This document shows, in pieces, positions 8,001 to 37,066 of a DNA stretch of 64,000 nucleotides. Source of the stretch: Nitrospiria bacterium (GTDB lineage Bacteria; Nitrospirota; Nitrospiria; Nitrospirales; NS-4); NCBI GenBank assembly GCA_041490525.1, contig JBGPTH010000004.1, positions 17,635 through 81,634 on the forward strand, in the 5' to 3' direction. Each line of letters begins with the position of its first letter. The stretch's first letter is position 1. The notes beneath the pieces are model-generated. The model saw only the letters and a program-made list of their open reading frames with translations. It was not told where the DNA came from and did no database searches. The translations under genes and the position numbers were made by a program.

Positions 8001-8003
8001 GAA

Positions 8004-9734: not shown

Positions 9735-11023
9735 GGCCTTCCTCCCAATTCCGTTCCGACCGCCCGTTCGAGCTCGGCCATCCGCTGCTCAAATGCAGTC
9801 AGGGCTCGGTAATAATCGAGCGTGAAGTCCTTGATCGCTCGCTCGGCATCAAGCAGAGTCAGGAACTCCACCTTGGCCGCTTTATAGCCCACTCTTGCGG
9901 ACTCCAACGTCTGTTGTGCCTGGGGAATCACGGTGGTCTTATAGAGCGTGACCATCTTCTCCGCCGCCTCGATCTTCGCCAGGAGATCCTTCACCTCAAA
10001 CATGATCTGGTTTTGCAGAACCTGGAAGGCCGCTTTCGCCGAGTCCTGGTTGGCCGCCGCCTCCCTAACTCCCGCGTCATATTTGGGCTTGGTCCAGAAG
10101 GCAAACGGGAGGCTCATGGTCAGCCCCGCCCCGAAGCCGTCCCGTGCTCCGAAGTTCTGGAACCGTTCCACCATCACGTTGAAATCCGGGTAATACTGTT
10201 TTTGCGCCAGCGCGGTGGCCGTTTGACTTCTGGCGATCTCAAGGTCTAAAGCCCGCAGCTCAGGCCGGTTCTGAATCACCATCTGCTGAGGGTCCTCCAG
10301 CGCCCGTTTCTCCCGAGGGCCAGCGGGCTCGGCAGGCTCTCCGAGGGGGGCCTGCGGGGGGCGATTCATGAGGATATTGAGTTTCCCCCTGGCGGTCTCC
10401 CGCTGCTGCTCCAGCACGGGGAACTGATTAAAGAGCTTCGAGACCTCCACGGTGGCTTTCAGCACGTCTACCTGCGCCCCCTTCCCCGCCCGAAACCGCG
10501 CGTTGGCGATGTCAAAGAACTCTTTCAAGAGAGCGATCTGCTGGTGATGCACCTCGATGGCCTTGTGGGCGAGGAACAACTCGTAATAGGCGGCCTTGAC
10601 CTGCGCGGCCACTTCACGCTCTTTGGCGAGGAGCATAGAGGCGGCCATCTCGGCCTCTTTGATCGCCAAGCCTTCTTTGAGACCCAGCTTGCCGGGATAG
10701 GGAAAGCGCTGCGACAAGCCGAAAATCGTATTGGCCGAGGCGTCGGGGTAGAGCCTATTGGGATAGTTGAACAGCTCGATCTTGAACTCGGGATCGTCCA
10801 GGGCTCGAGCTTGCGGAGCCCGCTCCTTGGCCGCCTGCCACCGATGGCGGGCCGCCTGGATCTCGGGATTCCGCTCGAGGGCCTCAGCGACGACGGCCTC
10901 AAGCCTAAGCGGATCCGACGAGGGCGCCGCTTGAGCGGGCATGAGTCCGCCCCAAAGACCTATTGCAAGAACCGCACTGCTGATGAACGCACGATGACCT
11001 CCGCACATGGTGCTGACCTCCAA
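9731..11023 (-). CDS. TolC-family outer membrane efflux protein
   Basis: 430-aa ORF with a signal peptide. Paralog of 2725-3993. Overlaps the adaptor gene by 4 nt. Confidence 0.85.
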   Translation of the reverse strand: MEVSTMCGGHRAFISSAVLAIGLWGGLMPAQAAPSSDPLRLEAVVAEALERNPEIQAARHRWQAAKERAPQARALDDPEFKIELFNYPNRLYPDASANTIFGLSQRFPYPGKLGLKEGLAIKEAEMAASMLLAKEREVAAQVKAAYYELFLAHKAIEVHHQQIALLKEFFDIANARFRAGKGAQVDVLKATVEVSKLFNQFPVLEQQRETARGKLNILMNRPPQAPLGEPAEPAGPREKRALEDPQQMVIQNRPELRALDLEIARSQTATALAQKQYYPDFNVMVERFQNFGARDGFGAGLTMSLPFAFWTKPKYDAGVREAAANQDSAKAAFQVLQNQIMFEVKDLLAKIEAAEKMVTLYKTTVIPQAQQTLESARVGYKAAKVEFLTLLDAERAIKDFTLDYYRALTAFEQRMAELERAVGTELGGRP

Positions 11024-11560: not shown

Positions 11561-12004
11561 TCACGCGGCGGGGACCTCCATGACGTACGCTTCCCCCTTC
11601 ATTTGGGGGTGCAGGTCGCAGCGGAAGGAATACTTTCCGGGCCGCTGGTTGTTGAAGCGGATGACGAGCGTCTTGCCCGGTTCCACGTAGAATCCTTCCA
11701 CTCCCTTGCCGTACGCGGCGACTCCTTCGCCCTCACCCTGTACCATGATTCCCTGAAGCATGGCTGAGTAGAAGCCGTGCCGGACGATGTCCTGATTGCG
11801 CAGGATGATGACCGCCGGCAGCCCAGGCTGGATCATCGTAGGTTTGGCCACCTGGAACTCATAATCCCGCATGAGAATTTCAAGCCGTTGCTCCGGCAAG
11901 GCCTGCGCCGCGCTCTGGACGTCCACGCGGAGCGCCGCAAGGCTCCCCCCGACAAGCATCATGACGGCGAGTACCCGTGTCACTCCATATGCTCCGCTTT
12001 TCAT
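11561..12004 (-). CDS. Cupredoxin (type-1 copper, amicyanin/plastocyanin-like) with signal peptide
   Basis: C-terminal ligand loop FRCDLHPQMKG (Cys-x2-His-x2-Met) plus an upstream His (VRHGFY). I prefer ATG 12004 (GGGAGG Shine-Dalgarno, MKSGAYGVTRVLAVMMLVGG) over the track start at 12088, which would overlap the upstream gene. Confidence 0.7.
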   Translation of the reverse strand: MKSGAYGVTRVLAVMMLVGGSLAALRVDVQSAAQALPEQRLEILMRDYEFQVAKPTMIQPGLPAVIILRNQDIVRHGFYSAMLQGIMVQGEGEGVAAYGKGVEGFYVEPGKTLVIRFNNQRPGKYSFRCDLHPQMKGEAYVMEVPAA

Positions 12005-12033
12005 AGAACCTCCCTTCCAGTCTGAACGGTCCA

Positions 12034-12579
12034 TCAACCTTCTTCCCGTTCCCAGTTCACCCGCACCAGCTTGTCCCGGTGGGCCCAATGGTAACTGGTT
12101 TTGCCCTTAAACGCTCGCTCCATCTCCCGCCCCATCCGCTGGGCCAGCTTGGTATTCGTGGTGAACACGCGCAATTCCTTCCCGTCGTCCTCGATCTTCA
12201 TAATCCGCTCCAGGGGATTGACCTCCTGCGCCCGGGCCGCTTCGTTATGCAACAGGCCGAGGACATCGCGCCGGTGCTCGGGGAGGCCGGGCCACCGCAA
12301 CGTCAGGACTCCATCAGGATAGCGGTCATGGACCTTGACACACGCCGGGCAGATGACCGCTTTGGTCCGTTTCTGGGAGACCAATTTCACGGACGCCGGC
12401 TCGTCGAATCGCCACCGTTTTTTCTCATAGATCGCATGACACTCCTTACAGACGGCGGGACCCGGCTGGGCCCCCCGAACGGCATAAGGATCCGGCTGCT
12501 GGCCGGCCAGACGACGCGGGTTGGAGACAAGGCGTCTCCCCTGCTTCCCGGCCGCTTTCCCGGTTCGCTTTCTTGACAT
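12034..12579 (-). CDS. BCAM0308-family / NMD3-like zinc-ribbon protein
   Basis: 181 aa with CKEC...CPAC motifs. Clear paralog of 31974-32477 (shared DKYP.G.LTL...NEEARA...P..RIM.IE...). Family name is from memory. Confidence 0.6.
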   Translation of the reverse strand: MSRKRTGKAAGKQGRRLVSNPRRLAGQQPDPYAVRGAQPGPAVCKECHAIYEKKRWRFDEPASVKLVSQKRTKAVICPACVKVHDRYPDGVLTLRWPGLPEHRRDVLGLLHNEAARAQEVNPLERIMKIEDDGKELRVFTTNTKLAQRMGREMERAFKGKTSYHWAHRDKLVRVNWEREEG

Positions 12580-12613: not shown

Positions 12614-12629
12614 CGCAAAGGTAGTACCA
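12614..12629 (-). promoter_or_regulatory. Sigma-54 promoter TGGTACTACCTTTGCG
   Basis: GG-N10-GC spacing is exact. Followed by a 33-nt leader containing GGAAGGAGG and ATG 12579. Confidence 0.55.
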
Positions 12630-15111: not shown

Positions 15112-15996
15112 CTACCGCCTGAACACCAGCACCGAACACGGGGCGTATTTGATGACGCCGTCGGAGACGCTGCCCATGAGGAATCGGGTGGTGCCGGAGA
15201 GCCCGCGGGAGCCGACGACGGCCAGATCGGCGCGCTCGGCCTCGGCCAGTTTCACGATCTCGTGGCTCGGATGTCCGTGCACAACCGCGGTGCTCACCTG
15301 AAAGCCAGCCTTTTCGATGCGCTCGGCAGCCTGCTTCGCGATCGTATGGGCCTCTTCGATGAACGGGGCCCGCACCCGGTCGAGAAGAGCCCCCTCCAGC
15401 GGCGGTTCCATCGAGGCCTCGATCGGGAGCGGAGGGACGACCGAAACGACCGTCAGGTGGGCCGCTTCCGGCAAGGGCATCTGAAGGAGAAACTCGAGGC
15501 CGGCCCGCGCGTCCTTGGAAGCATCCATGCCCACGACGATCCGTCTGAGCACCGGCACCCGCTTCTTGACCAGCAGCACCGGACAGCCGGCGTGCACCAC
15601 GACCTTGCGCGACACGCTGCCCAGCAGGAAGGCCCGGACATCCGTCAGCCCCCGCGAGCCCATCACGATCATGTCGGCTTTCAGCTTCGCCGCCGTCCGC
15701 ACGATGCTCTCGGCCGGGTGCCCGCGCACGAGGCGGCTGTCCACGGTTCCCCAAACAGGAGAGAGCGCGGCCTTCTCGCGCGCCAACACGGTCCGGCCGG
15801 TCTCCTCCGCCAGGCCCAGCGCCTGCCTCATGGCGTCCTCGGCCCCCTCCCCCGCTCCCCGGTGGGGCTTGTACTTGGCGGTGTCCACCATGTGCACGAG
15901 CACCAGCGCCGACCCCCGAGGAAAGGGCCAGCGCCGCAGCGCCTCCAGCGCCCACTTCGAATGCTTCGATCCGTCCACCGCGCAGAGGACCTTCAT
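15112..15996 (-). CDS. Universal stress protein, tandem Usp domains
   Basis: MKVLCAVDGSKHS... plus a second domain VVGMDASKDA... Both have G-x2-G-x9-G(S/T)V ATP-type motifs. ATG 15996 is preceded by AGGAGA. The track start is 16023. Confidence 0.85.
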   Translation of the reverse strand: MKVLCAVDGSKHSKWALEALRRWPFPRGSALVLVHMVDTAKYKPHRGAGEGAEDAMRQALGLAEETGRTVLAREKAALSPVWGTVDSRLVRGHPAESIVRTAAKLKADMIVMGSRGLTDVRAFLLGSVSRKVVVHAGCPVLLVKKRVPVLRRIVVGMDASKDARAGLEFLLQMPLPEAAHLTVVSVVPPLPIEASMEPPLEGALLDRVRAPFIEEAHTIAKQAAERIEKAGFQVSTAVVHGHPSHEIVKLAEAERADLAVVGSRGLSGTTRFLMGSVSDGVIKYAPCSVLVFRR

Positions 15997-16015
15997 GCCG
16001 GATGCTCTCCTGCCC

Positions 16016-17044
16016 TTAGTCACGCTCGTTCATGTAGGCCGCCGTCTCCTCCGGCACCGCGGTATTGATGAAGATGCCGGACCCGATCTCGAACCCCGCG
16101 ACGGTGGTCAGGCGAGGGATGATGCACAGATGCCAGAGGAAATAGGGCTTGTTCTCGTCCTCGATGGGGGCCGAGTGGACGACAAAGTTGTAGTCCGGGT
16201 CGTTGAGATGCCGAGAGATCTTTGAAAGGACAGCCGCGAGGACCCGGGCGAACCGCTTGGCCTCGTCCGTCGAAATCTGCCCGAAGGAGGGGACGTGGTG
16301 GGTCGGGGCGATCCAGGTCTCGAACGGCGAGCGCGAGGCGAAGGGATGGAAGGCGACGAACCCCTCCCCTTCAAAGACCACCCGCTCCTTCGCCTTCCGC
16401 TCCTCCTTCACCACGTCGCAATAGATGCACCCGCCGGTGTCGTCGTAGTACTGGGTGGCCACCGTGTATTGGGCGCGAAGGTGCTCCGGAACGATCGGCG
16501 TGCCGACGATCTGGGCGTGCGGATGCACGAGGGACGTCCCGGCCGCCTCCCCATAGTTCTTGAACAGGATGACGGCCTTCACGGAGGGGGCCTCACCGAG
16601 CGCCAGGTACCGGTCCCGGTACATGAGGACGGCTTCCTGCGCCTGGTGATCCGACAGGAGGGCGAACGGCAGGTTGTGCGCCGGGGTTTCGATGATGACC
16701 TCGTGCCGGCCGACGCCGGCCATCCGCCGGAAATAATGGTCGCCGCTGCGGTCACCGGAGGCCTCGGGAGCGAGCGCCGGGAACCGATTGGGGACCACCC
16801 GCACCCACCACCCGGGCGCGTTCGGGCTGCCGACCCGAAAGGCGGCCACTTCGGGCGGGGTCGATGCCTCGTTGCCGGGACAGAAGGGGCAAGACGGGTC
16901 GGAGGCCGGGCGCTCAGGAGGCTCTCTCCGGGACCGGAACTCGTCCGGTCGCCGGGCGCGATCCCGGGCAATGATCACCCACTCCTTCGTGAAGGGATTC
17001 TGGCGCAGTTCAGACATGGGCGGGCGGATTGTCTCACAGGGCAT
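16016..17044 (-). CDS. galT: Galactose-1-phosphate uridylyltransferase-family (GalT/HIT-like) nucleotidyltransferase
   Basis: CPFCPGNE zinc motif and HPHAQIV active-site HxHxQ motif. Start uncertain (17044 or 17017). Confidence 0.75.
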   Translation of the reverse strand: MPCETIRPPMSELRQNPFTKEWVIIARDRARRPDEFRSRREPPERPASDPSCPFCPGNEASTPPEVAAFRVGSPNAPGWWVRVVPNRFPALAPEASGDRSGDHYFRRMAGVGRHEVIIETPAHNLPFALLSDHQAQEAVLMYRDRYLALGEAPSVKAVILFKNYGEAAGTSLVHPHAQIVGTPIVPEHLRAQYTVATQYYDDTGGCIYCDVVKEERKAKERVVFEGEGFVAFHPFASRSPFETWIAPTHHVPSFGQISTDEAKRFARVLAAVLSKISRHLNDPDYNFVVHSAPIEDENKPYFLWHLCIIPRLTTVAGFEIGSGIFINTAVPEETAAYMNERD

Positions 17045-17129: not shown

Positions 17130-17783
17130 ATGCACGAACACTACCAGATCAATGTGTTGGCCAAGGAGGAATCGTGGCGTCTGTTTCGGATCATCGGCGA
17201 GTTCGTGGAGGGCTTCGACGCGCTGCCCAAAGTCCTTCCCGCCGTGACGATTTACGGAAGCTCCCGGGCCGACCCCGGCACGTGGGCCTATGCGACCGCC
17301 GAAAAGACCGCGCGCGCCCTGGCCCAGAAGGGCTTCTCGATCATCACGGGGGGCGGGCCCAGCGTAATGGAGGCGGCCAACAAGGGGGCCTTCGAGGGCG
17401 GGGGGAAGTCGGTTGGCCTGAACATCGACATTCCGGTGGAGCAGGTCTCGAACCGCTATACCACGCTCTCCCTGAAGTTCCACTACTTCTTCGTCCGGAA
17501 GGTCATGCTGGTCAAGTACGCGACCGCCTTCATCCTGTTCCCGGGGGGATTCGGGACGCTGGACGAGCTCTTCGAGATCGCCACCTTGATCCAGACCGAA
17601 AAGCTCCAACCCTTTCCGGTAATTCTAATGGGACGGTCGTACTGGAGTGGGCTCCTGGAATGGCTCCGGACCCAGGTGGTCGGCCACGAGTTTCTGGACC
17701 CGTCCAGTCTCGACCTGTTCACGATCACGGACGATGTCCAGGAGGTGGTGACCATCATCGAGAATTGTTGTCGCCCCACCTGA
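17130..17783 (+). CDS. LOG-family / TIGR00730 Rossmann-fold nucleotide-binding protein
   Basis: GGGPSVMEAANKGAFEGGG and PGGFGTLDELFE motifs. Confidence 0.8.
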   Translation: MHEHYQINVLAKEESWRLFRIIGEFVEGFDALPKVLPAVTIYGSSRADPGTWAYATAEKTARALAQKGFSIITGGGPSVMEAANKGAFEGGGKSVGLNIDIPVEQVSNRYTTLSLKFHYFFVRKVMLVKYATAFILFPGGFGTLDELFEIATLIQTEKLQPFPVILMGRSYWSGLLEWLRTQVVGHEFLDPSSLDLFTITDDVQEVVTIIENCCRPT

Positions 17784-17833: not shown

Positions 17834-19642
<1,809 letters not shown>

Positions 19643-19666: not shown

Positions 19667-20209
19667 TCAGGAGATCACCGGCAGGGGGTTGACGGTCGTC
19701 GCCTGGGGCCCTTTTTCTCCCGGTTCGAGATTGAAGACCACTTCCACGCCGTCCTCCAGGGCCTCAAACGTCAGGCCGTGCAGCGCGTTCTTATGAAAGT
19801 ACACCTCCCCGCCCCCTTCCCTCAGGATGAACCCGTACCCCTCCTGAGGGAACAGCTTGCAGATCACCCCGCGCAGCGGCGGAACCGGCGGGGTCCGCAC
19901 CTCGGTCGTAGCGCGCTTCCCGCGGAACTTTTGCAACTCGATGTCCACCGACAGGAAGGCGGCGCGGATGGCCTCCTCGAAGGTCTTTTCCTCTTTCCTG
20001 GCCGTGATCGTGTGCCGGCCGGGCAGCGTCACCACCACCAGCGCTTCCGCCACCCGCCGGTCCTTCTTATGGTGCAGATTCTTCGTCAGGGTCACCCGCC
20101 CGTGGAGCAGGTCGTCATGGCCCGCCTGCAGGTCGGCCATCCTTTCCTCGACCTCCGTCTTCCATCTCGGCGTCATCGCCACATTCCGGCTCTCAATATG
20201 CAGTTCCAT
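19667..20209 (-). CDS. HPF/RaiA ribosome-hibernation domain fused to a cold-shock domain
   Basis: The N-terminal ~100 aa are RaiA-like (MELHIESRNVAMTPRWKTEVEERM...). The C-terminus is CSD-like (GYGFILREGGGEVYFHKNAL...GEKGPQATTV). Confidence 0.7.
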   Translation of the reverse strand: MELHIESRNVAMTPRWKTEVEERMADLQAGHDDLLHGRVTLTKNLHHKKDRRVAEALVVVTLPGRHTITARKEEKTFEEAIRAAFLSVDIELQKFRGKRATTEVRTPPVPPLRGVICKLFPQEGYGFILREGGGEVYFHKNALHGLTFEALEDGVEVVFNLEPGEKGPQATTVNPLPVIS

Positions 20210-20279
20210 CGCTCCTCCTCGGCCTCCCGTTGTTGAACTGGATGATCAGGATAAGTCCCCCAAGAGTCAACCCCCCGTC

Positions 20280-21377
20280 TCAGACCGCGATCGCCCAGCG
20301 GCCCTCGATGAAGCCCGCACAGTTCGGACAGCGTCCGGCGCTGAGCCGATTCTGCACCAATCCCACTCCGCGCCGCCGGATGACCCTGTCGCCGCAGAAC
20401 GGACAGACCGTGTCCTCACCGCCCTCCTCTTCCGGCGCATTGCCCACGTAAACGTACCTGAGTCCGGCTTCGCGCCCGATCTCGCGAGCGCGCCTCAGCG
20501 TGGCGAGCGGGGTCTCCTCGACGTCGGCCATCTTGTACGCCGGATAGAACCGGCTGAGGTGCCACGGCACGGATTCGCCGAGGTCCGTCCGGATGAAGGC
20601 CGCCATCTCCCGCAATTCCATTTCATCATCGTTCAGCCCGGGGATGATCAGCGTCGTCAATTCGATCCATACGCCCAGTTGCTTGTACAGCCGGATCGCC
20701 TCGAGGATCGGTTGCAGCCGGGCCCCGCAGACCCGCTTGTAAAAGCCGTCGCGAAAGGATTTGAGGTCGATGTTCGCCGCGTTCAGATAGGGAGCGATCT
20801 CGCGCAAGGGCGCCGGCGCGATGAATCCGTTGGTCACGAAGATATTGCCGAGGCCAGCCTCCGACGCCGCCCGGGCCGTGGCAAGGGCGAGCTCGAAAAA
20901 GATCGTCGGCTCGGTGTAGGTATAGGCGATGGAGGCCGCTCCCGAACGGGCCGCCTCCGCGACCAGCTCCGAGGGCATTACGCGCGTCCCCAACGCCGTC
21001 TCGTCTGGCTGGGCGGCCAGATCTGGACACACGACCTCGCCGGGATGATCGGAGGGCGGCTCCGGATGCCGCAGCTTGGGCCATTGGGAGATGAGCCAGT
21101 TCTGACAGAACAGGCAGCGCAAGTTACACCCCACCGTCGCGATCGAGTAGGCCCGGCTCCCCGGCAGGAAGTGGAACAGCGGCTTCTTCTCGACCGGGTC
21201 CACGTCGCAGGCGACCACCCGGTCGGCCACCAGCGTGTACAGCCGCCCGTCGTGGTTGACCCGCACCCCGCACGCCCCTCGATGGCCCGGCGCGATCTTA
21301 CAGTCGTGCGGGCACAGCGTGCAGAGCACGCGCCCATTCGGAAGACTCTCGTAATATAGCGCCGCCTGGAGATTCAT
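20280..21377 (-). CDS. AmmeMemoRadiSam-type radical SAM enzyme (AmrS-like)
   Basis: CNLRCLFCQNW radical-SAM cluster motif, N-terminal CTLCPHDC...GACGVR motif and DPVEKKPLFHFLPG. ATG 21377 follows GGGGAGGAGG. Confidence 0.8.
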   Translation of the reverse strand: MNLQAALYYESLPNGRVLCTLCPHDCKIAPGHRGACGVRVNHDGRLYTLVADRVVACDVDPVEKKPLFHFLPGSRAYSIATVGCNLRCLFCQNWLISQWPKLRHPEPPSDHPGEVVCPDLAAQPDETALGTRVMPSELVAEAARSGAASIAYTYTEPTIFFELALATARAASEAGLGNIFVTNGFIAPAPLREIAPYLNAANIDLKSFRDGFYKRVCGARLQPILEAIRLYKQLGVWIELTTLIIPGLNDDEMELREMAAFIRTDLGESVPWHLSRFYPAYKMADVEETPLATLRRAREIGREAGLRYVYVGNAPEEEGGEDTVCPFCGDRVIRRRGVGLVQNRLSAGRCPNCAGFIEGRWAIAV

Positions 21378-21447
21378 GTGCCTCCTCCCCAACCTGCCGC
21401 ACGGATCGATATGAGGATCGCCCCGGCCGTTCGAAGTTCCCTCAAGG

Positions 21448-21999
21448 TCACTTCCGACAGCGATAAGGGGTGAGCGCGCCGGACTGCGCTTCCCGCTCCA
21501 GATCCTCGATGGTCCGGTCCGTGAGCACCGAGGTTTCGCACGTCTCGGTGATCTCGGTGCCCGGACGCGCCTCCTCGTCCTGGTTCTTCACCAGCAGCCA
21601 CTGCCGGGGGCGGCCCTTCATCCGGATCAGGGAGAACCGGCCCTTGAGCCGCCGCCCGTGTAGGATGACATCCAGCTTGCCGGCATCCGCCATCGCCTCC
21701 GCGGCGGCGCCGGCCTTCTCCCCCGCCGCGGGCTCAAACCAGCCGGTGTCCCAAACCAGCACGGGCCCGGCTCCGTATTGGCTCTCTTCGATCACACCCT
21801 CGAAGTCGGCATACTCAAGGTCATGGTCCTCCACTGCCACCGCCAACCGTTTCACCGCCGGATCCAGGGACGGGCCCTTGGGAATCGTCCAGGACTTGAG
21901 GACGCCGCCGATCTCCAGCCGGAAATCATAATGCAGATGGGAGGCCTTGTGTTTCTGCACGTTGAAGATCGGCCGCCTGGCTCTGGGGGATCCGCCCAT
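21448..21999 (-). CDS. LigD-type 3-prime phosphoesterase (PE) domain protein, stand-alone
   Basis: QKHKASHLHYDFRLEIGGVLKSWTIPKGPSLDP is the hallmark of the LigD PE domain. No ligase or polymerase domain is attached. Confidence 0.8.
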   Translation of the reverse strand: MGGSPRARRPIFNVQKHKASHLHYDFRLEIGGVLKSWTIPKGPSLDPAVKRLAVAVEDHDLEYADFEGVIEESQYGAGPVLVWDTGWFEPAAGEKAGAAAEAMADAGKLDVILHGRRLKGRFSLIRMKGRPRQWLLVKNQDEEARPGTEITETCETSVLTDRTIEDLEREAQSGALTPYRCRK

Positions 22000-22032
22000 A
22001 CGCCCGCCTCGCTCCCTGATCCTCCGGAGGAC

Positions 22033-23241
22033 TCAACAGACTCCGTACTCGCCCCGCGCCAGCGCCTCGCAGAACGGCCCGATCTCGGCCAGCGCGTCCC
22101 GAACATGGCGGCGCACCGCCGGCTCCACCGTCTTCAGGCTGATGCCCCGACGCAAGGCTACCTCCACCGCCGCAAGCCGCGGCGAGGAGACCGGCCGGCC
22201 GATCTCGCTCGTGAGCCAGACCGTGACCTCCCGGAGCCCCCCGACCGTACGCAGGATCCGTTCCGCCAGGACCTGGGCCAGCACGGTGTAGATCTTCCCG
22301 ACGTGCGCGACCGGATTCTTGCCCGCGGCCGCCTCGGCGCTCGCCGGCCGCCCCAGCGAGATGACCCCGCACACCCGATTGCCCCGCCCCACCTCGCCGG
22401 AGTCCCCGGCCTCCGCCGACGTGCCGAGGAGCGAGAGATACATCCCCGCCACGCCGGCGCCCGGTCGGTCCAGCGTGTTCATGTGCACCCGCACGGTCAA
22501 GCCCGCCACGGCCTCTCCTTGCACAAAGCGCCGGATCGCCTCCTGCACCGCGGCCTTCCGTTCGAAGTAGGCTCTCTCCGACCGGATGGCCGAGGCCAGC
22601 AAGGGCATCGCGACGGTCACGGTCAGCGTGGGGCCGCTGCGGACCCCGAGCACCTTGACGTCCTCACCGGTCTCCGGAAACGCGGCCTTGAACGCTGCGC
22701 CGTTCAGAAACCGCTCCACGCCCAGCACGAGCCGCTCAGTCCGCGTCAGCGGCGCATAGCCGACCGCGGCGGAGGTATCGTTGGCCACCGGGACCTTCCG
22801 CCCGACCACGGACTGCAGCTCCGCCGACGCCGGCCTCAGCTCCACCTGACAGCGCAGGTGCTTCGCCGGGTCCACGTGCCGAAGGTGCGTCCGGAACCAG
22901 TCGTGCACCGCGCGCACGGCGACGTCCTTGACCGGCACGCGTTTCCGGCGCCATTCAAACGTCGCCCGGTCGCCGAGGACCAACCGCATCGGTTCAAGCA
23001 CGCGTCCCCCGCCCATCCGGCAATCCACCGCGCCCGCCACCAGCAGGCCTTTGTCCGCGTTAAAGTGGAGGACGCGGCCACAAATTTCCTGATAGGCCCG
23101 CGCCAGCCTGACCGCGACCTGCTCCATGACGGCGTCGCAGATCGTATCGGGGTGACCCAGACCCTTCCGTTCCACCACCTCGAGCGGCTGGGTCGCGATG
23201 GGACCGCGGGATGACTCCAGCACCTGGATCGAGGTGGTCAT
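22033..23241 (-). CDS. Archaeal-type S-adenosylmethionine synthetase (methionine adenosyltransferase)
   Basis: VERKGLGHPDTICDAVMEQV near the N-terminus and 402 aa length fit the archaeal MAT family. The true ATG 23241 forms an ATGA overlap with the upstream stop. The 86-aa N-terminal extension in the track is spurious. Confidence 0.7.
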   Translation of the reverse strand: MTTSIQVLESSRGPIATQPLEVVERKGLGHPDTICDAVMEQVAVRLARAYQEICGRVLHFNADKGLLVAGAVDCRMGGGRVLEPMRLVLGDRATFEWRRKRVPVKDVAVRAVHDWFRTHLRHVDPAKHLRCQVELRPASAELQSVVGRKVPVANDTSAAVGYAPLTRTERLVLGVERFLNGAAFKAAFPETGEDVKVLGVRSGPTLTVTVAMPLLASAIRSERAYFERKAAVQEAIRRFVQGEAVAGLTVRVHMNTLDRPGAGVAGMYLSLLGTSAEAGDSGEVGRGNRVCGVISLGRPASAEAAAGKNPVAHVGKIYTVLAQVLAERILRTVGGLREVTVWLTSEIGRPVSSPRLAAVEVALRRGISLKTVEPAVRRHVRDALAEIGPFCEALARGEYGVC

Positions 23242-24125
23242 CCGAACCCACCATGACCTTCTTGGTCTGGCTCCCGGTAGTACGCCGCGCACTCGGCTTC
23301 CCGGCCGCGGACAATGCGCTTGCCTTTCAGCGGGTCCTGCTGCGCGGTGATGACGGTGCACTGGTGCTCCCCGCGCCCGTCGTCGAAGTACAGGATTACC
23401 CAGTCGCGGGTCTTCCCCAATTGATGTGCCCGCGCCGTGTTCGAGAACAGCACCGTATAATGCCGCGACCCTCGCTGAGTGTGCAGGACCGGAAGCCACG
23501 CCTCGCCGGTCGGGTTAAACCGCCTCGGCGAGATCGTGCGAAGCGTTCCGGCCGCGGCCCTCTCCCGATATTCACGGTCCACTTCGAGCAGTTCGCCGAC
23601 CGAGGTCTCCAGGCCCGGCGCACGGGGCGCCGTCTCGCCGAATCGTCCCCGCACGCGCCCGAGCCGGCCCGCCAATGAATCGATGATGCCCGCCAGCCTC
23701 TTCTCTCCGATCCCGGCGATCTCAGAGAGCCGCCCATCGTGGGCGGCCGTCTCCAACTCCTCCAGCGTGTCGATGCCGAGATCGTGGTGCAGCCGCTTGG
23801 CCATGGCCTCGCCGATTCCCGGCACCGAGGCCAACAGCGTGACCGGGTCGGCCTCCCCCCGCAATCGGTCCAGCATGGGAAGCCGCCCCGTATTCACCAG
23901 ATCCCGGATCGACCGCGCGAGGCTTTCGCCGATCCCGGGCAATTGCTGGAGCCCTTCCATCCCCTCCGCGTTCAGGATGTCCGTCACCGGACGCTCCAGG
24001 CGATGCAAGGTCTCGCCGGCGCGGCGGTACGCCTGGACCCGAAAGGGGTTGGCCCCCTGCTCCTGGAGCAGGCGCGCCACCTCTTTCAGGCGCTGGGCGA
24101 TTTCGTCATTGAGCATCTCGGCCAT
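23238..24125 (-). CDS. Helix-hairpin-helix protein resembling the N-terminal (8-kDa/fingers) part of family-X DNA polymerases, without a catalytic domain
   Basis: LNDEIAQRLKEVARLLQEQGANPFRVQAYRRAGETL and repeated GIGE HhH motifs. The C-terminal half (RRFNPTGEAWLPVLHT...RIVRGREAEC) has unknown function. Start is 24125 (ATG) or 24155 (GTG). Confidence 0.6.
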   Translation of the reverse strand: MAEMLNDEIAQRLKEVARLLQEQGANPFRVQAYRRAGETLHRLERPVTDILNAEGMEGLQQLPGIGESLARSIRDLVNTGRLPMLDRLRGEADPVTLLASVPGIGEAMAKRLHHDLGIDTLEELETAAHDGRLSEIAGIGEKRLAGIIDSLAGRLGRVRGRFGETAPRAPGLETSVGELLEVDREYRERAAAGTLRTISPRRFNPTGEAWLPVLHTQRGSRHYTVLFSNTARAHQLGKTRDWVILYFDDGRGEHQCTVITAQQDPLKGKRIVRGREAECAAYYREPDQEGHGGFG

Positions 24126-24144
24126 GGTGGACCGGAGAATTGCG

Positions 24145-24825
24145 TCAGCAAGCACCTTCTGGCGATTTCCTCGGAAGATACTGACAAAACCACCGGCGTG
24201 CGTGATCCGCGACCTGCTCCAGCGTCCCAGGCTCTTCGAACAAGTGCGTGGCGCCGGGCACGATCACCAACTGTTTGTGACACGCGAGCAGGGCGAGGGC
24301 TTCCTCGTTCATCCGGATCACGGGCACATCCAGGCCGCCGACAATTAAAAGCGTCGGGGCCTTGACCCGAGGGAGATAGGGCGCGGCCAGATCGGGCCGG
24401 CCGCCGCGGGAGACGACCGCGGCCACGGAGGCAGGCGCGCGCCCCGCCGCCTGCAAGGCCGCGCCGGCTCCCGTGCTCGCTCCGAAATAGCCCAGCGGAA
24501 GGCCCTTTGTCGCCGGCTCCTGCGCAAGCCAGCCGGCGGCCGCCATCAAGCGATCCGCCAGCAGATCAATGTCGAAGACCTTGCGCCGGTCCTCGGCTTC
24601 GTCCTCCTCCAGGAGATCAAGCAGCAGCGTCGCCAACCCGCCCTCTTGAAGCGTGCGCGCCACGAACGTGTTGCGCGGACTCAGCCGGCCGCTGCCGCTC
24701 CCATGGGCGAACAGCACAATCCCCGCCGGTTTCGCCGGCAGACCGAGGATGCCCTGGAGCACGACCGGGCCCGCCGACACCTCGACCGGCCGCTCACTGC
24801 TCGTCCCTGGTTTCTCAGGTTTCAT
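24145..24825 (-). CDS. Dienelactone-hydrolase-like alpha/beta hydrolase
   Basis: 226 aa with IVLFAHGSGSGRLSPRN and a C-terminal GATHLFEEPG pattern. Confidence 0.65.
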   Translation of the reverse strand: MKPEKPGTSSERPVEVSAGPVVLQGILGLPAKPAGIVLFAHGSGSGRLSPRNTFVARTLQEGGLATLLLDLLEEDEAEDRRKVFDIDLLADRLMAAAGWLAQEPATKGLPLGYFGASTGAGAALQAAGRAPASVAAVVSRGGRPDLAAPYLPRVKAPTLLIVGGLDVPVIRMNEEALALLACHKQLVIVPGATHLFEEPGTLEQVADHARRWFCQYLPRKSPEGAC

Positions 24826-24839
24826 TGGGATTACACTTC

Positions 24840-24855
24840 TGCATCACGCATGCCA
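24840..24855 (-). promoter_or_regulatory. Sigma-54 promoter TGGCATGCGTGATGCA
   Basis: Exact GG-N10-GC spacing. Only 14 nt separate it from ATG 24825, implying a near-leaderless transcript. Confidence 0.55.
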
Positions 24856-25003
24856 TCTAATGGTTGCGGCTCATCCGGACCGATCAGGAGAGGGAGCACA
24901 AGGGAAATTCCCCCGCTTCCGTCAGCGAAGACAAGAAATCCCACGGGCATCACAACGAGAAAATGCCCTAAAATGCCACAACGGAAAGAATGAAAGTGTG
25001 GAG

Positions 25004-25714
25004 ATGGGACACAGTCATGAGAGAATGACTTCCGACCACATGGTACTCTGGCTTGTCCTCTTCCTGTCGCTCCTTCCACTGGGGTGCGCGGCCCCCGTTC
25101 GCGATCTGTGGCCGCCCACGCCGGGTGCGCCGTCCCGGACCATTTACGTCTCGCTCGATACGTGGCATGCCATGATCGCCTTTCCTCAAGCGGCGCTGCA
25201 AGAACCTCCTGCGTCTCCCCTCGAATCCCTCCCCCACCCCCCGATGAGCCGAGCGCCCCGGTTCGAAGAGTGGGGCTATGCCGAGCGCGACTGGTACCTC
25301 GAGGGCCGCCGGGGCATCACCGGCGTGGTCAGGGCGCTCTTCTGGCCGACGCCGGGCACGATCGAGATCGGGCTGCATGACGAGGTCTGGGCGGCCCGTA
25401 CGCCGCAGCCCCCCTCCGACCTTTTCACCTTTCGGCTGAGCGACGACGGCTATCGGCGCTTGCGCCGGCACCTGCGTGCCACGATCGCGGACCCCGCTCC
25501 CATCTTGGTCGCGGGGACCACCGCGTTCTTTGCCTCGCAGCGCTCGTACCATCTGTTCCATAACTGTCACCAATACGTGGCGGGAGCGCTCCGGGAGGCC
25601 GGACTGCCGCTCTCCACCTTCTTGGCGTTCAACCGGGCGAGCCTAGCCCTGCAGCTTCGCCGCGCAACACACATGGCGGAAGAAAATGAGGCGGCCGGTT
25701 CCGGGGCCCGATGA
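25004..25714 (+). CDS. TIGR02117/DUF2459-like lipoprotein (hypothetical)
   Basis: Lipobox LSLLPLGCAA and IYVSLDTWHAMIAF. Candidate starts are 25004, 25025 and 25040. The track ORF starting at 24653 is over-extended. Confidence 0.5.
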   Translation: MGHSHERMTSDHMVLWLVLFLSLLPLGCAAPVRDLWPPTPGAPSRTIYVSLDTWHAMIAFPQAALQEPPASPLESLPHPPMSRAPRFEEWGYAERDWYLEGRRGITGVVRALFWPTPGTIEIGLHDEVWAARTPQPPSDLFTFRLSDDGYRRLRRHLRATIADPAPILVAGTTAFFASQRSYHLFHNCHQYVAGALREAGLPLSTFLAFNRASLALQLRRATHMAEENEAAGSGAR

Positions 25715-25715
25715 C

Positions 25716-26780
25716 TCACCGGTCGGCGGGCCGAAAGCCGCTGCCGGTCACCGACAGAACGTGATCTTCGATCCGCACCTCCGCCCCCAGGAATTCCTTG
25801 GCGAGCCAGGCGCTGGTCTCCACATGCTCGGTGACGGAGGGAATTCGGAAGGAGCTCGCGCCTTCCGCCAGCGCGGCAAAGGGAATGATCTGGTCGGCGG
25901 CGAACCGGTCCAGCGTCGCTCCCGTCCGCAAGTCTTCCAGAAGGTGGTGGGCCACAAAGCGCCCGATGGCTTCAGACCGCCGTCCCCGCGCGCCTGCGCG
26001 GTCTGCGCCCAGGCGCGCCTTCCCGCTCAAATCGACGAACGCCGCCAGCGCCGCTCCCGGTTGCGCGGCGGTGGTGTCATATCGGACTTCAAAGTCGGCC
26101 CGATACCCGGCTCCCGCCAGCACTTCGTTCGCCGCCTCGGCCATGCGATGACTCACCCTCGCCTCCTCGAGCTGGGAGGCCAGCGCGATCCCCCAGACCC
26201 GTTCCACGGTTCCAGGCTCTTCCAGAACCAGGCTTTGCAGCCCCCGAAGGACGGGTTTCACGCTCAAGGAAAGAATGCCGCCGCCCTGCGGGACATAGCC
26301 GGGGCGCTTCATCTCCACCTCGGCCTCAAGACCCATTCTGACCAGCAGCGGCAGCATCACGTGTTGCAGGTAAAACACCGACGGCGCAAAGTCCTGAAAG
26401 AGCCCTCCCCGGAGTTCGGCTTGAATCGGTGAGGGCGCAAAGGCCAGCACCGGAAGAAGCGCCAAGCCCAGCATCGTGGTGGAGCCGGCGGAGCCGATAT
26501 CCCAGTGGTAATGCCGGCCCGCCTGCACGGACCCGGGACGGAAGATCAGTTCCTGCGAACCCTTGGCGAGCCCTTCGACCGTCCCGTCCACCAGTTGGCG
26601 AATGGCTTCGACGACCAGGACATGTTGCGCACGGAGGCCCGGCTTGGGGCGCCGAACGCGGGCCTTCACGATGTGGACCGCCCGGCCCGTCAGTGCGGAG
26701 AACATCACCGCCTGGCGGACAATGGTGCCGCTGCCGGAATACCGCGATCCGTCAATCTCGAGCATCGCTATCGTTACCAC
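25716..26780 (-). CDS. rtcA: RNA 3-prime-terminal phosphate cyclase
   Basis: MLEIDGSRYSGSGTIVRQAVMFSALTGRAVHIVKARVRRPKPGLRAQHV is a typical RtcA N-terminus, and the length fits. Confidence 0.8.
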   Translation of the reverse strand: MVTIAMLEIDGSRYSGSGTIVRQAVMFSALTGRAVHIVKARVRRPKPGLRAQHVLVVEAIRQLVDGTVEGLAKGSQELIFRPGSVQAGRHYHWDIGSAGSTTMLGLALLPVLAFAPSPIQAELRGGLFQDFAPSVFYLQHVMLPLLVRMGLEAEVEMKRPGYVPQGGGILSLSVKPVLRGLQSLVLEEPGTVERVWGIALASQLEEARVSHRMAEAANEVLAGAGYRADFEVRYDTTAAQPGAALAAFVDLSGKARLGADRAGARGRRSEAIGRFVAHHLLEDLRTGATLDRFAADQIIPFAALAEGASSFRIPSVTEHVETSAWLAKEFLGAEVRIEDHVLSVTGSGFRPADR

Positions 26781-28176: not shown

Positions 28177-28192
28177 TGGTATCGACCTTGCA
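28177..28192 (+). promoter_or_regulatory. Sigma-54 promoter TGGTATCGACCTTGCA
   Basis: Exact spacing, 38 nt before ATG 28230, with a GAGGG Shine-Dalgarno in the leader. Confidence 0.55.
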
Positions 28193-28229: not shown

Positions 28230-28955
28230 ATGCGCGGCAAAGAAGAAGTCCTCAAGGAGGTTCGAGCGGCGTTTGAGCACGAGCCGCGGATAAAACTGCA
28301 CCGGTGTCCGGTCCACATGGACTTTACCGACGGCGTCCTGACCTTGGAAGGGGAACTGGAGAATATCGCCGCCAAGAAGCTGGCCATGGAACTGGCGATC
28401 GCCGTTCCCGGTGTCAGCGGGATCGTGGACCGCCTTCGGACGGCTCCGGCCGAGCGCATGGGCGATGGGGCCGTTCTCGATGCCGTGTGCGACGCGCTCC
28501 TTGAGGAACACGCCCTGCAGAACTGCACGATCAAAAGAAAGGCCAAGGGGAAGATGACCGTTGTCAGCGAGTCCCGCGCGGAGCCTCACGGCGTGATCGA
28601 GGTTTCCGTCAAGGACGGGGTCGTGCTCCTGGACGACCATGTCCCCAGCCTGTCCCAGAAGCGCCTGGCCGGAGTCCTAGCCTGGTGGGTCCCCGGAAGC
28701 CGCGACGTCATCAACGGCATGGAGGTGGTTCCCCCCGAGGAGGACAACGACGACGAGGTGACCGAGGCGGTACGGATGGTGTTGGAGAAGAACCGCTTCC
28801 TCAATGCGGATCAAATCCAGGTGACCACCCGGAACTTCGTGGTCACCTTGGAGGGAGTCGTCCGCACGGAGGCCCAGAAGGAGATGGCCGAATTCGATGC
28901 CTGGTACGTCTTTGCCGTGGACAAGGTCGTCAATAACCTCACGGTGCTGGAATAA
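28230..28955 (+). CDS. BON-domain protein (three BON repeats)
   Basis: Three repeats of the DGV(L/V)TLEG...A......VPGV..V.N.L pattern. Confidence 0.8.
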   Translation: MRGKEEVLKEVRAAFEHEPRIKLHRCPVHMDFTDGVLTLEGELENIAAKKLAMELAIAVPGVSGIVDRLRTAPAERMGDGAVLDAVCDALLEEHALQNCTIKRKAKGKMTVVSESRAEPHGVIEVSVKDGVVLLDDHVPSLSQKRLAGVLAWWVPGSRDVINGMEVVPPEEDNDDEVTEAVRMVLEKNRFLNADQIQVTTRNFVVTLEGVVRTEAQKEMAEFDAWYVFAVDKVVNNLTVLE

Positions 28956-29772
28956 CCGGCGATCTTCGATAGACCCGCATGTTCAGAGACCAGGGTTCCC
29001 ATCCCGCCGCTCCTTCGGGGAGGGACTCGAGGCTGCCGAGCACGAGCGCCCCTTCCGGAAGCAGCCTGTCAGAGATCTTCTGAAGCGTCGCGCGCTGCAA
29101 CTCGTCATCGAAATAGGTGAAGGCGAGATTGCGGCACAGGATCAGATGAAAGCGATCCTCCGGCGCGCTCTGCCTCACATCCTGCAGCAGAAAGTTCACC
29201 GGCTCCCGGTATTCGGGTTTCACGCAAAACCCGTCCGCCGAAGGGACGCACGCCTTCGCCAGCAGATCCCCCGGCAGCTCCTTGAGGCTGCTCGCCGGGT
29301 AGCAGCCTCGCTGGGCGCGCTCGATCGCCCGCGGGTCGGCATCCGTGGCCAGAATCCGAAGACAGAGGGACGGCCACCGCGGCGCAAGGACGAGCTTCCA
29401 GAGAATCGTCAGGGTATAGGGCTCCTCCCCGGACGCGCACCCGATGCTCCAGCCCCGCACCGCCTGTTCCCCTTTGGCGGACGCCGCCTGGGCGATCTGA
29501 GTCAGGACTTCCCGCTCCAGAAACTGAAAGACCCCTTTGTCCCGATAAAACCGGGAAATGGAAATCCAGCACAGCTCGTCCAGTATCTTCCATTCGGCCG
29601 GATGGGTGTCCAGGTAGGCCCGGTACTCGTCGGGGCCCGACAACTCCAGTTCCTTCAACCGACGGTCGATGCGCTTATAGACCTGCCGGCGAACCTTGCG
29701 AAACCCCGGCCATCGCAAATGCAGCCTCGGCAAGCACCACTGCAGCAGCTGAATCCCCTCGGAATCTTTCAT
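28939..29772 (-). CDS. CheR-type SAM-dependent methyltransferase
   Basis: ISRFYRDKGVFQFL, WSIGCASGEEPYTL and ILCRNLAFTYF motifs. No other chemotaxis genes are nearby. Confidence 0.75.
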   Translation of the reverse strand: MKDSEGIQLLQWCLPRLHLRWPGFRKVRRQVYKRIDRRLKELELSGPDEYRAYLDTHPAEWKILDELCWISISRFYRDKGVFQFLEREVLTQIAQAASAKGEQAVRGWSIGCASGEEPYTLTILWKLVLAPRWPSLCLRILATDADPRAIERAQRGCYPASSLKELPGDLLAKACVPSADGFCVKPEYREPVNFLLQDVRQSAPEDRFHLILCRNLAFTYFDDELQRATLQKISDRLLPEGALVLGSLESLPEGAAGWEPWSLNMRVYRRSPVIPAP

Positions 29773-31597: not shown

Positions 31598-31613
31598 AGC
31601 AAGGGCAATACCA
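31598..31613 (-). promoter_or_regulatory. Sigma-54 promoter TGGTATTGCCCTTGCT
   Basis: Exact spacing, 53 nt before ATG 31544. Divergent partner of the promoter at 31866-31881. Confidence 0.55.
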
Positions 31614-31865: not shown

Positions 31866-31881
31866 TGGCATCGGTTTTGCG
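31866..31881 (+). promoter_or_regulatory. Sigma-54 promoter TGGCATCGGTTTTGCG
   Basis: Exact spacing, 92 nt before ATG 31974, with a GAGGAGGAG Shine-Dalgarno. Confidence 0.6.
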
Positions 31882-31973: not shown

Positions 31974-32477
31974 ATGACTGACAGCTCACGAGAGGCCCCC
32001 TTCGAGAAGTCCCAGCGCGACCGTACGGTGCAAGAGGAATACGAGCACGACGCCTATAAGTCCAGCGGCAAACTGCCGGAGCCAACCGTGTGTCCTAAAT
32101 GCAAGGCCTTGTTCCACAAAGGCCGGTGGACGTGGCAGTCCCACCCAGGCGAAGCGCACCAAGAGATGTGCCCGGCCTGCCATCGGACCCATGACAAATA
32201 CCCTGCCGGGTATCTTACGTTGAGCGGACCGTTTCTCAAAGAGCACAAGGACGAAGTCCTGAGCCTGGCTCGCAACGAGGAGGCGAGGGCCAAGGCAGAA
32301 CACCCGCTTCGCCGGATCATGACCATTGAGGAAAACAAGGAGGGCATTCTGATTTGCACGACCGATACGCACTTGCCACGACGGATCGGAGAAGCGATCA
32401 AACACGCTTTCCACGGCGAACTCCATTTCCGATATGCTGAAGATGAAAAGTTACTCCGTGTGGCCTGGAAAAGATAA
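31974..32477 (+). CDS. BCAM0308-family / NMD3-like zinc-ribbon protein (paralog 2)
   Basis: CPKC...CPAC motifs. Alignable by eye with 12034-12579. Confidence 0.6.
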   Translation: MTDSSREAPFEKSQRDRTVQEEYEHDAYKSSGKLPEPTVCPKCKALFHKGRWTWQSHPGEAHQEMCPACHRTHDKYPAGYLTLSGPFLKEHKDEVLSLARNEEARAKAEHPLRRIMTIEENKEGILICTTDTHLPRRIGEAIKHAFHGELHFRYAEDEKLLRVAWKR

Positions 32478-33218: not shown

Positions 33219-33530
33219 CTAGCCAAGCGAGCGCCAGGCACCGTCCTTCCAGACGTAGGTCTGACCTTTCGGATCGTCGACCGGACACTGGGCCAGAACC
33301 AATCGGCAGCCGGTTCGCTTATAGAGGTGTTCGGCCTTTTGCCCCATCAAGAGGGCCAGGCTCAGGGAGGGCACCGCCGCCCTCAGACGGACGGGCACGA
33401 TGATCTGCCCTTCGGGGCCGCGAACGATGTGATCGGAGTCCGCTTGGGGTTCAGCCTCGAACCGCTCCGCTTCCAGCAGACCCAGAAATTCCTTCACGGC
33501 CAGACGCTCGCCGGAATCCAGCGTATTCAT
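33219..33530 (-). CDS. Hypothetical 103-aa protein
   Basis: Its start overlaps the upstream Usp stop by 4 nt. Confidence 0.4.
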   Translation of the reverse strand: MNTLDSGERLAVKEFLGLLEAERFEAEPQADSDHIVRGPEGQIIVPVRLRAAVPSLSLALLMGQKAEHLYKRTGCRLVLAQCPVDDPKGQTYVWKDGAWRSLG

Positions 33531-35244: not shown

Positions 35245-35260
35245 GGCAAAAGAAATGCCA
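35245..35260 (-). promoter_or_regulatory. Sigma-54 promoter TGGCATTTCTTTTGCC
   Basis: Exact spacing. Its first 15 nt are identical to the promoter at 37051-37066. Confidence 0.6.
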
Positions 35261-35499: not shown

Positions 35500-35515
35500 T
35501 GGCATTCCCCTTGCG
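35500..35515 (+). promoter_or_regulatory. Sigma-54 promoter TGGCATTCCCCTTGCG
   Basis: Exact spacing, 56 nt before ATG 35572, with a GGAAGGAGG Shine-Dalgarno. Confidence 0.6.
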
Positions 35516-37050: not shown

Positions 37051-37066
37051 CGCAAAAGAAATGCCA
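37051..37066 (-). promoter_or_regulatory. Sigma-54 promoter TGGCATTTCTTTTGCG
   Basis: Exact spacing, located in the 74-nt gap after the Mut7-C gene. Confidence 0.6.

Follow-up and report, generated by a model that had tools for sequence, protein, structure and literature searches.

Burkholderia cenocepacia depends on its lxa locus, an island of 50 genes, to persist under anoxia, and at 6% O2 the expression of the island rises by as much as 240-fold (Sass et al. 2013, PMC3721108). The table of its genes contains six universal stress proteins (USPs), alpha-crystallin, BON 'phospholipid-binding' proteins, a lysine decarboxylase, BCAM0309 as an FtsH-type protease, cytochrome c, transporters of the ABC and outer-membrane kinds and a cation ATPase, and the authors point out the overlap with the DosR dormancy regulon (PMC3721108). 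Here we compare with it a stretch of 64,000 nt from a Nitrospiria bacterium (contig JBGPTH010000004.1), called the window below, and in particular a six-gene operon at 19667-24855 of this stretch. The operon encodes a hydrolase, a helix-hairpin-helix (HhH) protein, an archaeal-type methionine adenosyltransferase (MAT), a stand-alone LigD-type 3'-phosphoesterase (PE), a radical S-adenosylmethionine (SAM) enzyme (rSAM) and a hibernation-promoting factor fused to a cold-shock domain (HPF-CSD). It is probably a sigma-54-driven, lineage-specific assembly of genes from a fluid lxa/DosR-like island; the six genes form no conserved machine, and their products would act in parallel.

By its gene content the window belongs to a stress island of the lxa/DosR type that spans at least 50 kb; the bacterium is Nitrospira-like and of high GC. 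USPs, a small heat-shock protein, BON, FtsH, LOG, cytochrome c, ABC/HlyD, P-type ATPase and BCAM0308-family genes of lxa are all present in the window. The name of the last family (NF040826) links the window to the B. cenocepacia locus, and the two genes that converge on the operon end bear the same two annotations as BCAM0283 and BCAM0309. The wiring and part of the content are different. While lxa carries an Anr/FNR-like TGA-N6-TCA motif (PMC3721108), the window carries sigma-54-type elements and no clear FNR-box pattern. Table 4 of the lxa study, which covers part of the 50 genes, names no MAT, radical SAM, LigD PE, HhH, HPF-CSD or RtcA.

The regulatory logic of the DosR (DevR) regulon differs as well. 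No DosR box stands out in the window (3 matches to GGGACN4GTCCC against 5.9 expected), and no regulation of this type is evident. The likeness to the DosR regulon of Mycobacterium tuberculosis is by family: USPs, alpha-crystallin, CBS, P-type ATPase, HPF-like protein, phosphoribosyltransferase (PRT) and dienelactone hydrolase (DLH)-type hydrolase. In the islands of relatives, nitroreductases (locus L001), class II ribonucleotide reductase (RNR; L090, L094, L095) and RtcB (L094, L095) extend this likeness. To our knowledge MAT, rSAM, PE and HhH are not members of the DosR regulon. The rtcBA RNA repair operon of Escherichia coli is controlled by RtcR and sigma-54. It and the window have in common that enzymes healing RNA ends occur in a region with sigma-54-type control. 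In contrast to rtcBA, neither RtcR nor RtcB is found in the window, and RtcA lies outside the operon and has no -24/-12 element.

Nitrospira, which are key nitrite oxidisers, have to live through swings in oxygen. The window suggests that they own an lxa/DosR-like persistence island wired via sigma-54-type promoters, and we came across no publication on one in Nitrospira. A preliminary description of the operon had already placed it in a dormancy context, which the gene content supports. It had also proposed a SAM-dependent DNA or RNA repair/modification system. What is found is a low-oxygen/dormancy-type locus of a kind known elsewhere, wired differently and with additional genes; the claim of a new repair machine of six genes cannot be upheld.

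The six-gene unit and its probable promoter element

The window was annotated from a list of open reading frames (ORFs), Pfam and NCBIfam scans and PDB sequence matches, which took in nearly all of its ORFs of substantial size, and the gene list was curated by hand. All six genes are on the minus strand. In transcription order they encode a DLH-type alpha/beta serine hydrolase of 226 aa (24145-24825; PF01738, PDB 2o2g), the HhH protein with the 8-kDa and fingers domains of family-X DNA polymerase (PolX) and a C-terminal domain (23238-24125; HHH_8, HHH_5), the MAT of 402 aa (22033-23241; PF01941), the PE of 183 aa (21448-21999; TIGR02777), the rSAM, a divergent AmmeMemoRadiSam paralogue (20280-21377; TIGR04337), and the HPF-CSD fusion of 180 aa (19667-20209; PF02482 and PF00313). 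Pfam, NCBIfam and PDB matches agree with the identities first proposed for these six co-directional genes.

The junction spacings are 19, -4, 33, 70 and 70 nt, so all gaps are at most 70 nt. The HhH gene probably starts at ATG 24125, 19 nt behind the hydrolase gene. The same ORF also opens at GTG 24155, whose use would give an 11-nt overlap. The HhH stop and the MAT start share ATGA at 23241-23238, just where the preliminary description had put it. The spacing is then 33 nt from MAT to PE, 70 nt from PE to rSAM and 70 nt from rSAM to HPF-CSD. By our reading of the junction, rSAM starts at ATG 21377 behind GGAGGAGG and not at TTG 21392.

A consensus scan of the unit for internal promoters gave one sigma-70-like site against 0.8 expected, which is not significant. 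It is the weak TTGACT-17-GATCAT at 20242-20270(-) in the rSAM/HPF-CSD gap, a possible internal promoter. For intrinsic terminators, the only likeness on the minus strand of the unit is a weak stem of 5 bp within the hydrolase gene. Thus no significant internal promoter or terminator interrupts the unit, and most likely the six genes are co-transcribed as one sigma-54-type transcription unit. In the region 20001-24000 the operon has the highest G+C content of the window (0.65-0.69 versus ~0.63 overall) and a strong negative GC skew. An Rfam scan of the whole window gave zero matches, so no SAM riboswitch or other known RNA is recognised in it.

The element TGGCATGCGTGATGCA at 24840-24855(-), which ends 14 nt upstream of the hydrolase ATG, is a probable sigma-54-type promoter. 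Compared with the consensus TGGCACN5TTGCW, its GG/GC spacing is correct and two mismatches are observed, C to T at the sixth base and the first T of TTGC to A. The raw count of consensus matches in the whole window (29 versus 22.8 expected) is not above chance. The placement of the matches, however, is not random. There are 20 matches that keep GG and GC, 12 of them intergenic, and all 12 face a gene, while only 4.9% of the window positions qualify (binomial probability 1.7e-11). The 7,678 nt of intergenic DNA thus contain 12 elements, whereas shuffling them 2,000 times gave 1.4 +/- 1.2 and never more than 7.

The other 11 elements of this family are found on the minus strand at 4021-4036, 12614-12629, 31598-31613, 35245-35260, 37051-37066, 43003-43018, 53532-53547 and 62134-62149, and on the plus strand at 28177-28192, 31866-31881 and 35500-35515. 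They precede BON, bPH_2, CBS, PEBP, HSP20, response regulator, two BCAM0308-family, USP, phosphoribosyltransferase and efflux outer-membrane genes. The one before the phosphoribosyltransferase gene, 62149-62134(-), is a perfect consensus match, TGGCACTGGCCTTGCT, and the one at 4021-4036(-) precedes the outer-membrane gene of an efflux operon. The tandem-USP element TGGCATGCATGATGCA at 43003-43018(-) is 15/16 identical to that of the operon, and both have the unusual ATGC -12 box; outside this 16-mer the regions upstream of the hydrolase and of this gene (USP3) have no similarity. In relatives, loci L088 and L089 keep the identical 16-mer before the hydrolase, and TGGCAC-N5-TTGCT is found 23-61 nt upstream of rSAM orthologues in 14 of 17 related loci. 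The HPF-CSD gene of Nitrospira Kam-Ns4a has a -24/-12 element of its own.

The match at 24840-24855 might be chance, with the genes driven by unrelated, unrecognised promoters and sharing no regulation with the island. The two mismatches, a total match count not above that of shuffles, a very short leader and the lack of any bacterial enhancer-binding protein (bEBP) gene found in the window would fit this. However, the strong positional enrichment of the family, the 15/16 identical copy before a USP gene and the clear sigma-54 promoters of rSAM and HPF-CSD orthologues in relatives speak against it, and we consider it quite improbable. The promoter named in the preliminary description is thus plausible. 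FNR/Anr boxes are not informative, since their 35 matches in the window (11 expected) lie nearly all within genes and form no upstream pattern.

Gene order in relatives and the products of the unit

We compared 95 loci, namely the neighbourhoods of rSAM, HhH and HPF-CSD homologues together with 80 genome loci around MAT relatives. Linkage was counted by tblastn of all window proteins against these loci; the counts refer to the 18 other Nitrospiraceae MAT loci whose flanks reach 5 kb or more on each side. The preliminary description had taken the six genes for a module and had itself named a lack of conserved order as a reason to give the module up. The six-gene order is absent beyond relatives of 95-99% identity. 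Hydrolase, HhH and MAT follow each other only in L089 (HhH 99% identical) and L088 (HhH 95% identical, with an extra PF04008 gene upstream), and both contigs end within or just past MAT. None of the 18 loci has HhH, HPF-CSD or the hydrolase within 10 kb of MAT; over the same distance PE is found in 3/18 and RtcA in 5/18.

PE, HhH, hydrolase and HPF-CSD genes are found elsewhere in the same island type with other neighbours. HhH homologues adjoin USP, class II RNR, MgtC or sensor kinases. HPF-CSD homologues of 85-88% identity adjoin or lie near RtcB, USP, HSP20 or ClpB, and in Nitrospira Kam-Ns4a (L093) LonC comes directly after HPF-CSD. In shuffled order, the same families also surround the MAT, rSAM, HhH and HPF-CSD genes of other Nitrospirota, of Methylomirabilis (L044), of Rokubacteria (L081, with USP, hydrolase, PRT, GYD, GalT-like, MAT and RtcA) and of an alphaproteobacterium (L092).

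Only the coupling of MAT with radical SAM genes looks like a real functional pair. The operon-type rSAM is found within 5 kb of MAT in 7/18 loci, a PflX-like second radical SAM gene (rSAM2) in 6/18, and one or the other in 10/18. The pairing of this type of enzyme with an archaeal-type MAT, claimed from the window, thus recurs across Nitrospiraceae. In rSAM-centred neighbourhoods, MAT lies within 4 kb in all five distinct ones. rSAM2 (321 aa; L006 11189-12154, with equivalents in L001, L005, L010, L012, L018, L022, L024, L029, L030, L032, L074 and L079) is directly upstream of MAT in many Nitrospira. It is 73-86% conserved within Nitrospira and 54% in the outlier L079, and it is absent from the window. 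In Bathyarchaeia, rSAM-like and rSAM2-like genes stand in tandem, 5-7 kb from MAT. The recurrent series of sigma-54 promoter, rSAM, in some cases the PflX-like enzyme, and MAT may reflect a source of SAM reserved for anaerobic radical reactions during dormancy.

The MAT itself matches PF01941 with E 3e-140 (468 bits over 4-398 of 402 aa) and NF003363 with 543 bits, slightly below the equivalog cut-off of 557. It aligns with archaeal MAT structures with E 1e-87 (PDB 6s81, E 7e-87). The closest proteins to the MAT and the rSAM in species-level genome collections are 71% and 69% identical, so that the source lineage has little representation there. One metagenome-assembled genome has two MAT loci, L022 and L026, which are 79% identical and may be paralogues or mixed strains.

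One could take the MAT for the housekeeping SAM synthetase, its adjacency to rSAM for inherited synteny without functional coupling, and the operon for an accident. The fact that rSAM or rSAM2 is near MAT in only 10/18 loci agrees with this, as does the finding that the nearest MATs (70-71% identity) mostly have no operon-type rSAM nearby. But the adjacency to rSAM or rSAM2 survives while nearly everything else is shuffled, and it is preceded by strong sigma-54 promoters. The archaeal-type MAT is also found among island genes in Methylomirabilis (L044) and Rokubacteria (L081). Furthermore, in the N. marina data set (PMC8115632) a methionine adenosyltransferase of 383 aa, encoded among arginine-biosynthesis genes, is abundant and unchanged at low O2. 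By size and context this enzyme fits a candidate bacterial MetK, which suggests that the archaeal-type MAT is an extra, accessory isozyme. On this balance a housekeeping role is unlikely, though it keeps some weight.

The operon rSAM scores 342 bits with TIGR04337 (cut-off 220) and has the CxxxCxxC motif as CNLRCLFC, followed by an insertion of ~29 aa. Its best matches are 93% and then 69% identical, many of them named Nitrospira, and its orthologues are 65-69% identical. A second, canonical AmmeMemoRadiSam enzyme (rSAM_B) is encoded 18 kb from the operon at 39074-40171(+) and matches TIGR04337 over its full length with 659 bits; the two are 42% identical. The operon enzyme has the above-cut-off match, the CxxxCxxC motif, N- and C-terminal Cys motifs and a PflA-like core in common with the AmmeMemoRadiSam family. 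Unlike the canonical enzyme, it reaches about half of the paralogue's score, carries the 29-aa insertion and is linked to MAT and a PflX-like rSAM instead. AMMECR1 and Memo domains are found in none of the substantial ORFs of the window, nor within 10 kb in five Nitrospira rSAM neighbourhoods, nor beside the Bathyarchaeia homologue. Of the earlier remark that an AmmeMemoRadiSam-type enzyme lacks its usual partners here, the family match and the absence both stand, and the absence is less telling because the operon encodes a paralogue that has diverged and the canonical enzyme sits at 39074-40171. In the literature we found only incidental mentions of AmmeMemoRadiSam function. The nearest solved relatives of the operon rSAM are protein-activating PflA-type activases, and nothing points to a nucleic-acid substrate for it.

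The PE scores 177 bits with TIGR02777 (cut-off 144) and aligns with the stand-alone PE 5dmp with E 2e-48 and with the Pseudomonas aeruginosa LigD PE 3n9b with E 7e-43. Its catalytic His/Asp/Arg/Tyr motif is intact, with HxASHLHYDFRLE and EDH..Y aligned and HLHYDFRLE and EDHDLEY matched to the P. aeruginosa PE. The full PE domain with metal-binding and catalytic motif is thus common to it, to the stand-alone LigD-type PEs (5dmp, 3p43, 3p4h) and to the LigD PE 3n9b. The 183-aa protein is PE-only, and no ligase, primase-polymerase or Ku is found in the window. It stands alone as in 5dmp and the archaeal PEs, and its context is a stress island, not a locus for non-homologous end joining.

By sequence, HPF-CSD is an HPFcold-type ribosome hibernation factor, and its architecture is no longer an orphan. 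Residues 3-173 match PDB 9t0z chain 9 distantly (E 5e-13, 52 bits). This chain in 9t0z/9tze is CBU_0020 of Coxiella burnetii, named HPFcold, whose N-domain occupies the 30S decoding centre; on 70S monomers its CSD is bound to the anti-Shine-Dalgarno 3' end of the 16S rRNA, which it shields (bioRxiv 10.1101/2025.11.08.686982). The published tree of the HPF-CSD fusion includes Nitrospirota (bioRxiv 10.1101/2025.11.08.686982). Both proteins have PF02482, a short linker and PF00313 in ~180 aa; ribosome binding is seen for the Coxiella protein only. In contrast to the Coxiella system, HPF-CSD is here the last gene of a multi-gene unit. At least 1083 homologues are in the database, and the best 120 all have both domains. 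The embedding of this newly described factor in such islands, beside RNA/DNA end-healing enzymes, is a lead worth following.

The HhH protein has HHH_8 and HHH_5 domains. Its residues 4-154 align with residues 1-151 of Thermus thermophilus PolX 3au2 (phmmer), and a profile search of the PDB matches residues 2-150 of 3au2 with E 7e-28. The N-terminal 8-kDa and fingers HhH domains are thus common to both, but nothing in the HhH protein corresponds to the PolX palm with its catalytic aspartates, the thumb or the PHP domain, and an unrelated conserved C-terminal domain is found instead. The position of the dRP-lyase lysine of Pol beta would be a serine, as aligned by eye. The family has ~288 aa and is 70-80% identical across phyla.

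The C-terminal domain (23241-23624(-); homologues P0361-P0510) was modelled as its last 128 residues with pLDDT 79 and pTM 0.72. The model has a sheet of six to seven strands between two helices. Foldseek gave no match in the PDB (best E 0.93), and no Pfam model covers it. Of the claim of a PolX-N-like protein, the N-terminal match and the missing catalytic domain were borne out; for the C-terminal half, the proposed structure prediction and Foldseek search gave no fold match. The domain, which nearly always follows the HhH module, is found in 1029 clusters (50% identity). It has D, H, SNT, DW and E as invariant residues, which point to an active or binding site. A polymerase-less PolX derivative conserved at this level across phyla, with a C-terminal domain in at least 1,000 protein clusters, is a further lead. 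That the domain is a degenerate PolX palm/thumb was considered from a sequence likeness (Pol beta 'YFTGS...MRAHA' versus 'LFSNTARAH'), which neither the PDB profile search nor Foldseek supports.

The hydrolase matches PF01738 weakly (E 3e-6) and PDB 2o2g, a 'dienelactone hydrolase', with E 1e-71 over residues 11-217, and its translation has a GASTG nucleophile motif. In the representative P0493 a phosphoribosyltransferase domain is fused ahead of the HhH C-terminal domain. Rv0571c of M. tuberculosis is a PRT fused with a DLH hydrolase. In the operon the DLH hydrolase gene directly precedes the HhH gene, and we mention the comparison with the PRT/DLH fusion as a lead and not as a result.

With the products identified, the proposal of one SAM-dependent DNA/RNA repair or modification pathway can be weighed. 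In it, the MAT-fed rSAM would act on damaged nucleic-acid ends that HhH recognises and PE processes. The tight operon with its ATGA overlap, the several nucleic-acid-related domains in one unit, and RtcA, Mut7-C and THUMP in the island can be cited for it. In other Nitrospira, moreover, the canonical paralogue rSAM_B adjoins Mut7-C and/or RtcA (L018, L028, L067, probably L040), and RtcB, not RtcA, is close to HPF-CSD in L094 and L095. Against it, the order and linkage counts given above show no module, every gene has other neighbours elsewhere, the hibernation role of HPF-CSD needs none of the other five, and the closest relatives of the rSAM by sequence are protein-activating. A single pathway therefore seems very unlikely to us. 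The order is not conserved, HPF-CSD belongs to a known hibernation class and no observation links the rSAM to nucleic acids, so the system as first proposed is not sustained.

An anti-phage defence or other conflict system is extremely improbable. Some defence systems do contain radical SAM enzymes or CSD proteins, and weak domain-level PADLOC matches are found (CSD_V for the CSD; pVip, E 8e-4, for the paralogue only). Beyond the generic CSD, however, no PADLOC system protein matches any of the six, and the surrounding genes are of stress and housekeeping types; signatures of mobile elements or toxins are absent.

Proposed role of the island

In the reading that we prefer, a fluid stress island with parallel products, the island would be switched on, probably by oxygen limitation or growth arrest, and its products would preserve macromolecules in the non-growing cell. 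HPF-CSD would occupy the 30S decoding site and shield the 16S 3' end with its CSD, as its Coxiella homologue does. PE would remove 3'-phosphate or ribonucleotide blocks from broken strands, as do its LigD homologues. The HhH protein, which has lost the polymerase core, may bind gapped or nicked DNA. The archaeal-type MAT may supply SAM to oxygen-labile radical SAM enzymes working under low-oxygen or arrest conditions, a role suggested by the recurrent promoter-rSAM-MAT series of relatives. The serine hydrolase would act on some small-molecule substrate. Apart from the functions known from homologues, these substrates are putative.

Proteomics of N. marina is in line with a low-oxygen trigger. 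Proteins of USP-linked gene clusters show some of the strongest increases at low O2 (PMC8115632). In the same data set (PMC8115632), a 'CspA family' protein of 188 aa is up 2.1-fold (adjusted p 0.04), and by gene number its gene lies a few genes from the low-O2-induced USP/pfkA cluster.

Several observations weigh against this reading. The -12 box of the operon element is off consensus, ATGC for TTGC. The element ends only 14 nt before a hydrolase ATG that is backed by the 2o2g alignment; the predicted transcription start near 24829 implies a leader of ~4 nt without a Shine-Dalgarno sequence, i.e. a nearly leaderless transcript. No bEBP gene is found among the scanned window ORFs, and no inverted repeat that could be an upstream activator site in 24800-25050; the activator gene may lie in another part of the genome. 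The HPF-CSD gene is preceded by a Shine-Dalgarno sequence of its own, with a weak sigma-70-like site nearby. The MAT-rSAM adjacency is seen in only about half of the loci and may partly reflect common ancestry within one family. The proposed low-oxygen trigger is drawn from the lxa analogy and the N. marina proteomics, and by its size the 188-aa protein is a candidate HPF-CSD.

A bolder possibility is that in Nitrospiraceae a sigma-54-controlled core of the divergent rSAM, the usual rSAM2 and the accessory MAT, possibly acquired together from archaea, carries out a new SAM-dependent radical reaction specific to low-oxygen dormancy, and that in this lineage PE, HhH and HPFcold were recruited into the same unit because the target is nucleic acid or the ribosome. 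We regard this as distinctly unlikely.

Surrounding genes

Five tandem-USP genes are found in the window, all on the minus strand (15112-16023, 33527-34390, 42111-42974, 50308-51402 and 52098-52985). HSP20 is encoded at 53007-53462, a triple-BON protein at 28230-28955, a CheR-type methyltransferase at 28939-29772, GYD at 34406-34711 and a CBS pair at 35572-36000. The two genes convergent with the operon end are a LOG/lysine-decarboxylase-like gene (17130-17783(+)) and FtsH (17834-19642(+)). One BCAM0308-family Zn-ribbon protein lies at 31974-32477(+) (NF040826 'lxa_BCAM0308', 218 bits), and a paralogue, recognised by a weak NMD3 Pfam match and by paralogy, at 12034-12579(-); both genes lie behind -24/-12 elements. 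MacB/HlyD (44357-46973) and two P-type ATPases (47171-50008 and 53700-56219) follow, and cytochrome c and PEBP genes are present as well. A gene string E2/E1beta/E1alpha/acyl-CoA-synthetase/PRT runs along 56467-62138(-) behind the perfect consensus element, with the PRT at 61437-62138(-), and a partial LonC-like protease gene (62367-63998(+)) diverges from it.

RtcA, the RNA 3'-phosphate cyclase (TIGR03399, 298 bits), is encoded at 25716-26780(-). It is outside the operon, since the plus-strand DUF2459 gene (~25004-25714; PF09601) intervenes. A Mut7-C RNase is found at 37110-37706 and a THUMP match, which is weak, at 36005-36361, so that all three genes reported for the island are present. In L012, L018, L028 and L040, Mut7-C and RtcA are adjacent in this order and on the same strand, while in the window they are 10 kb apart, which indicates that the island is rearranged.

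Three further features were noted. The likeness of the ORF of 140 aa at 41440-41862(-) to the amino-acid/carbamate kinase family is confined to the C-terminal half (profile 124-233), and the gene is maybe truncated or frameshifted; a full-length AA_kinase of 352 aa is found in the comparable L095 island. Two RND/Cus-type efflux systems occupy 1-11023(-), with a partial AcrB-family gene and with HlyD/CusB-like (one with a YtkA domain) and TolC-like genes. Beside them lies a cupredoxin-like gene at 11561-12088.

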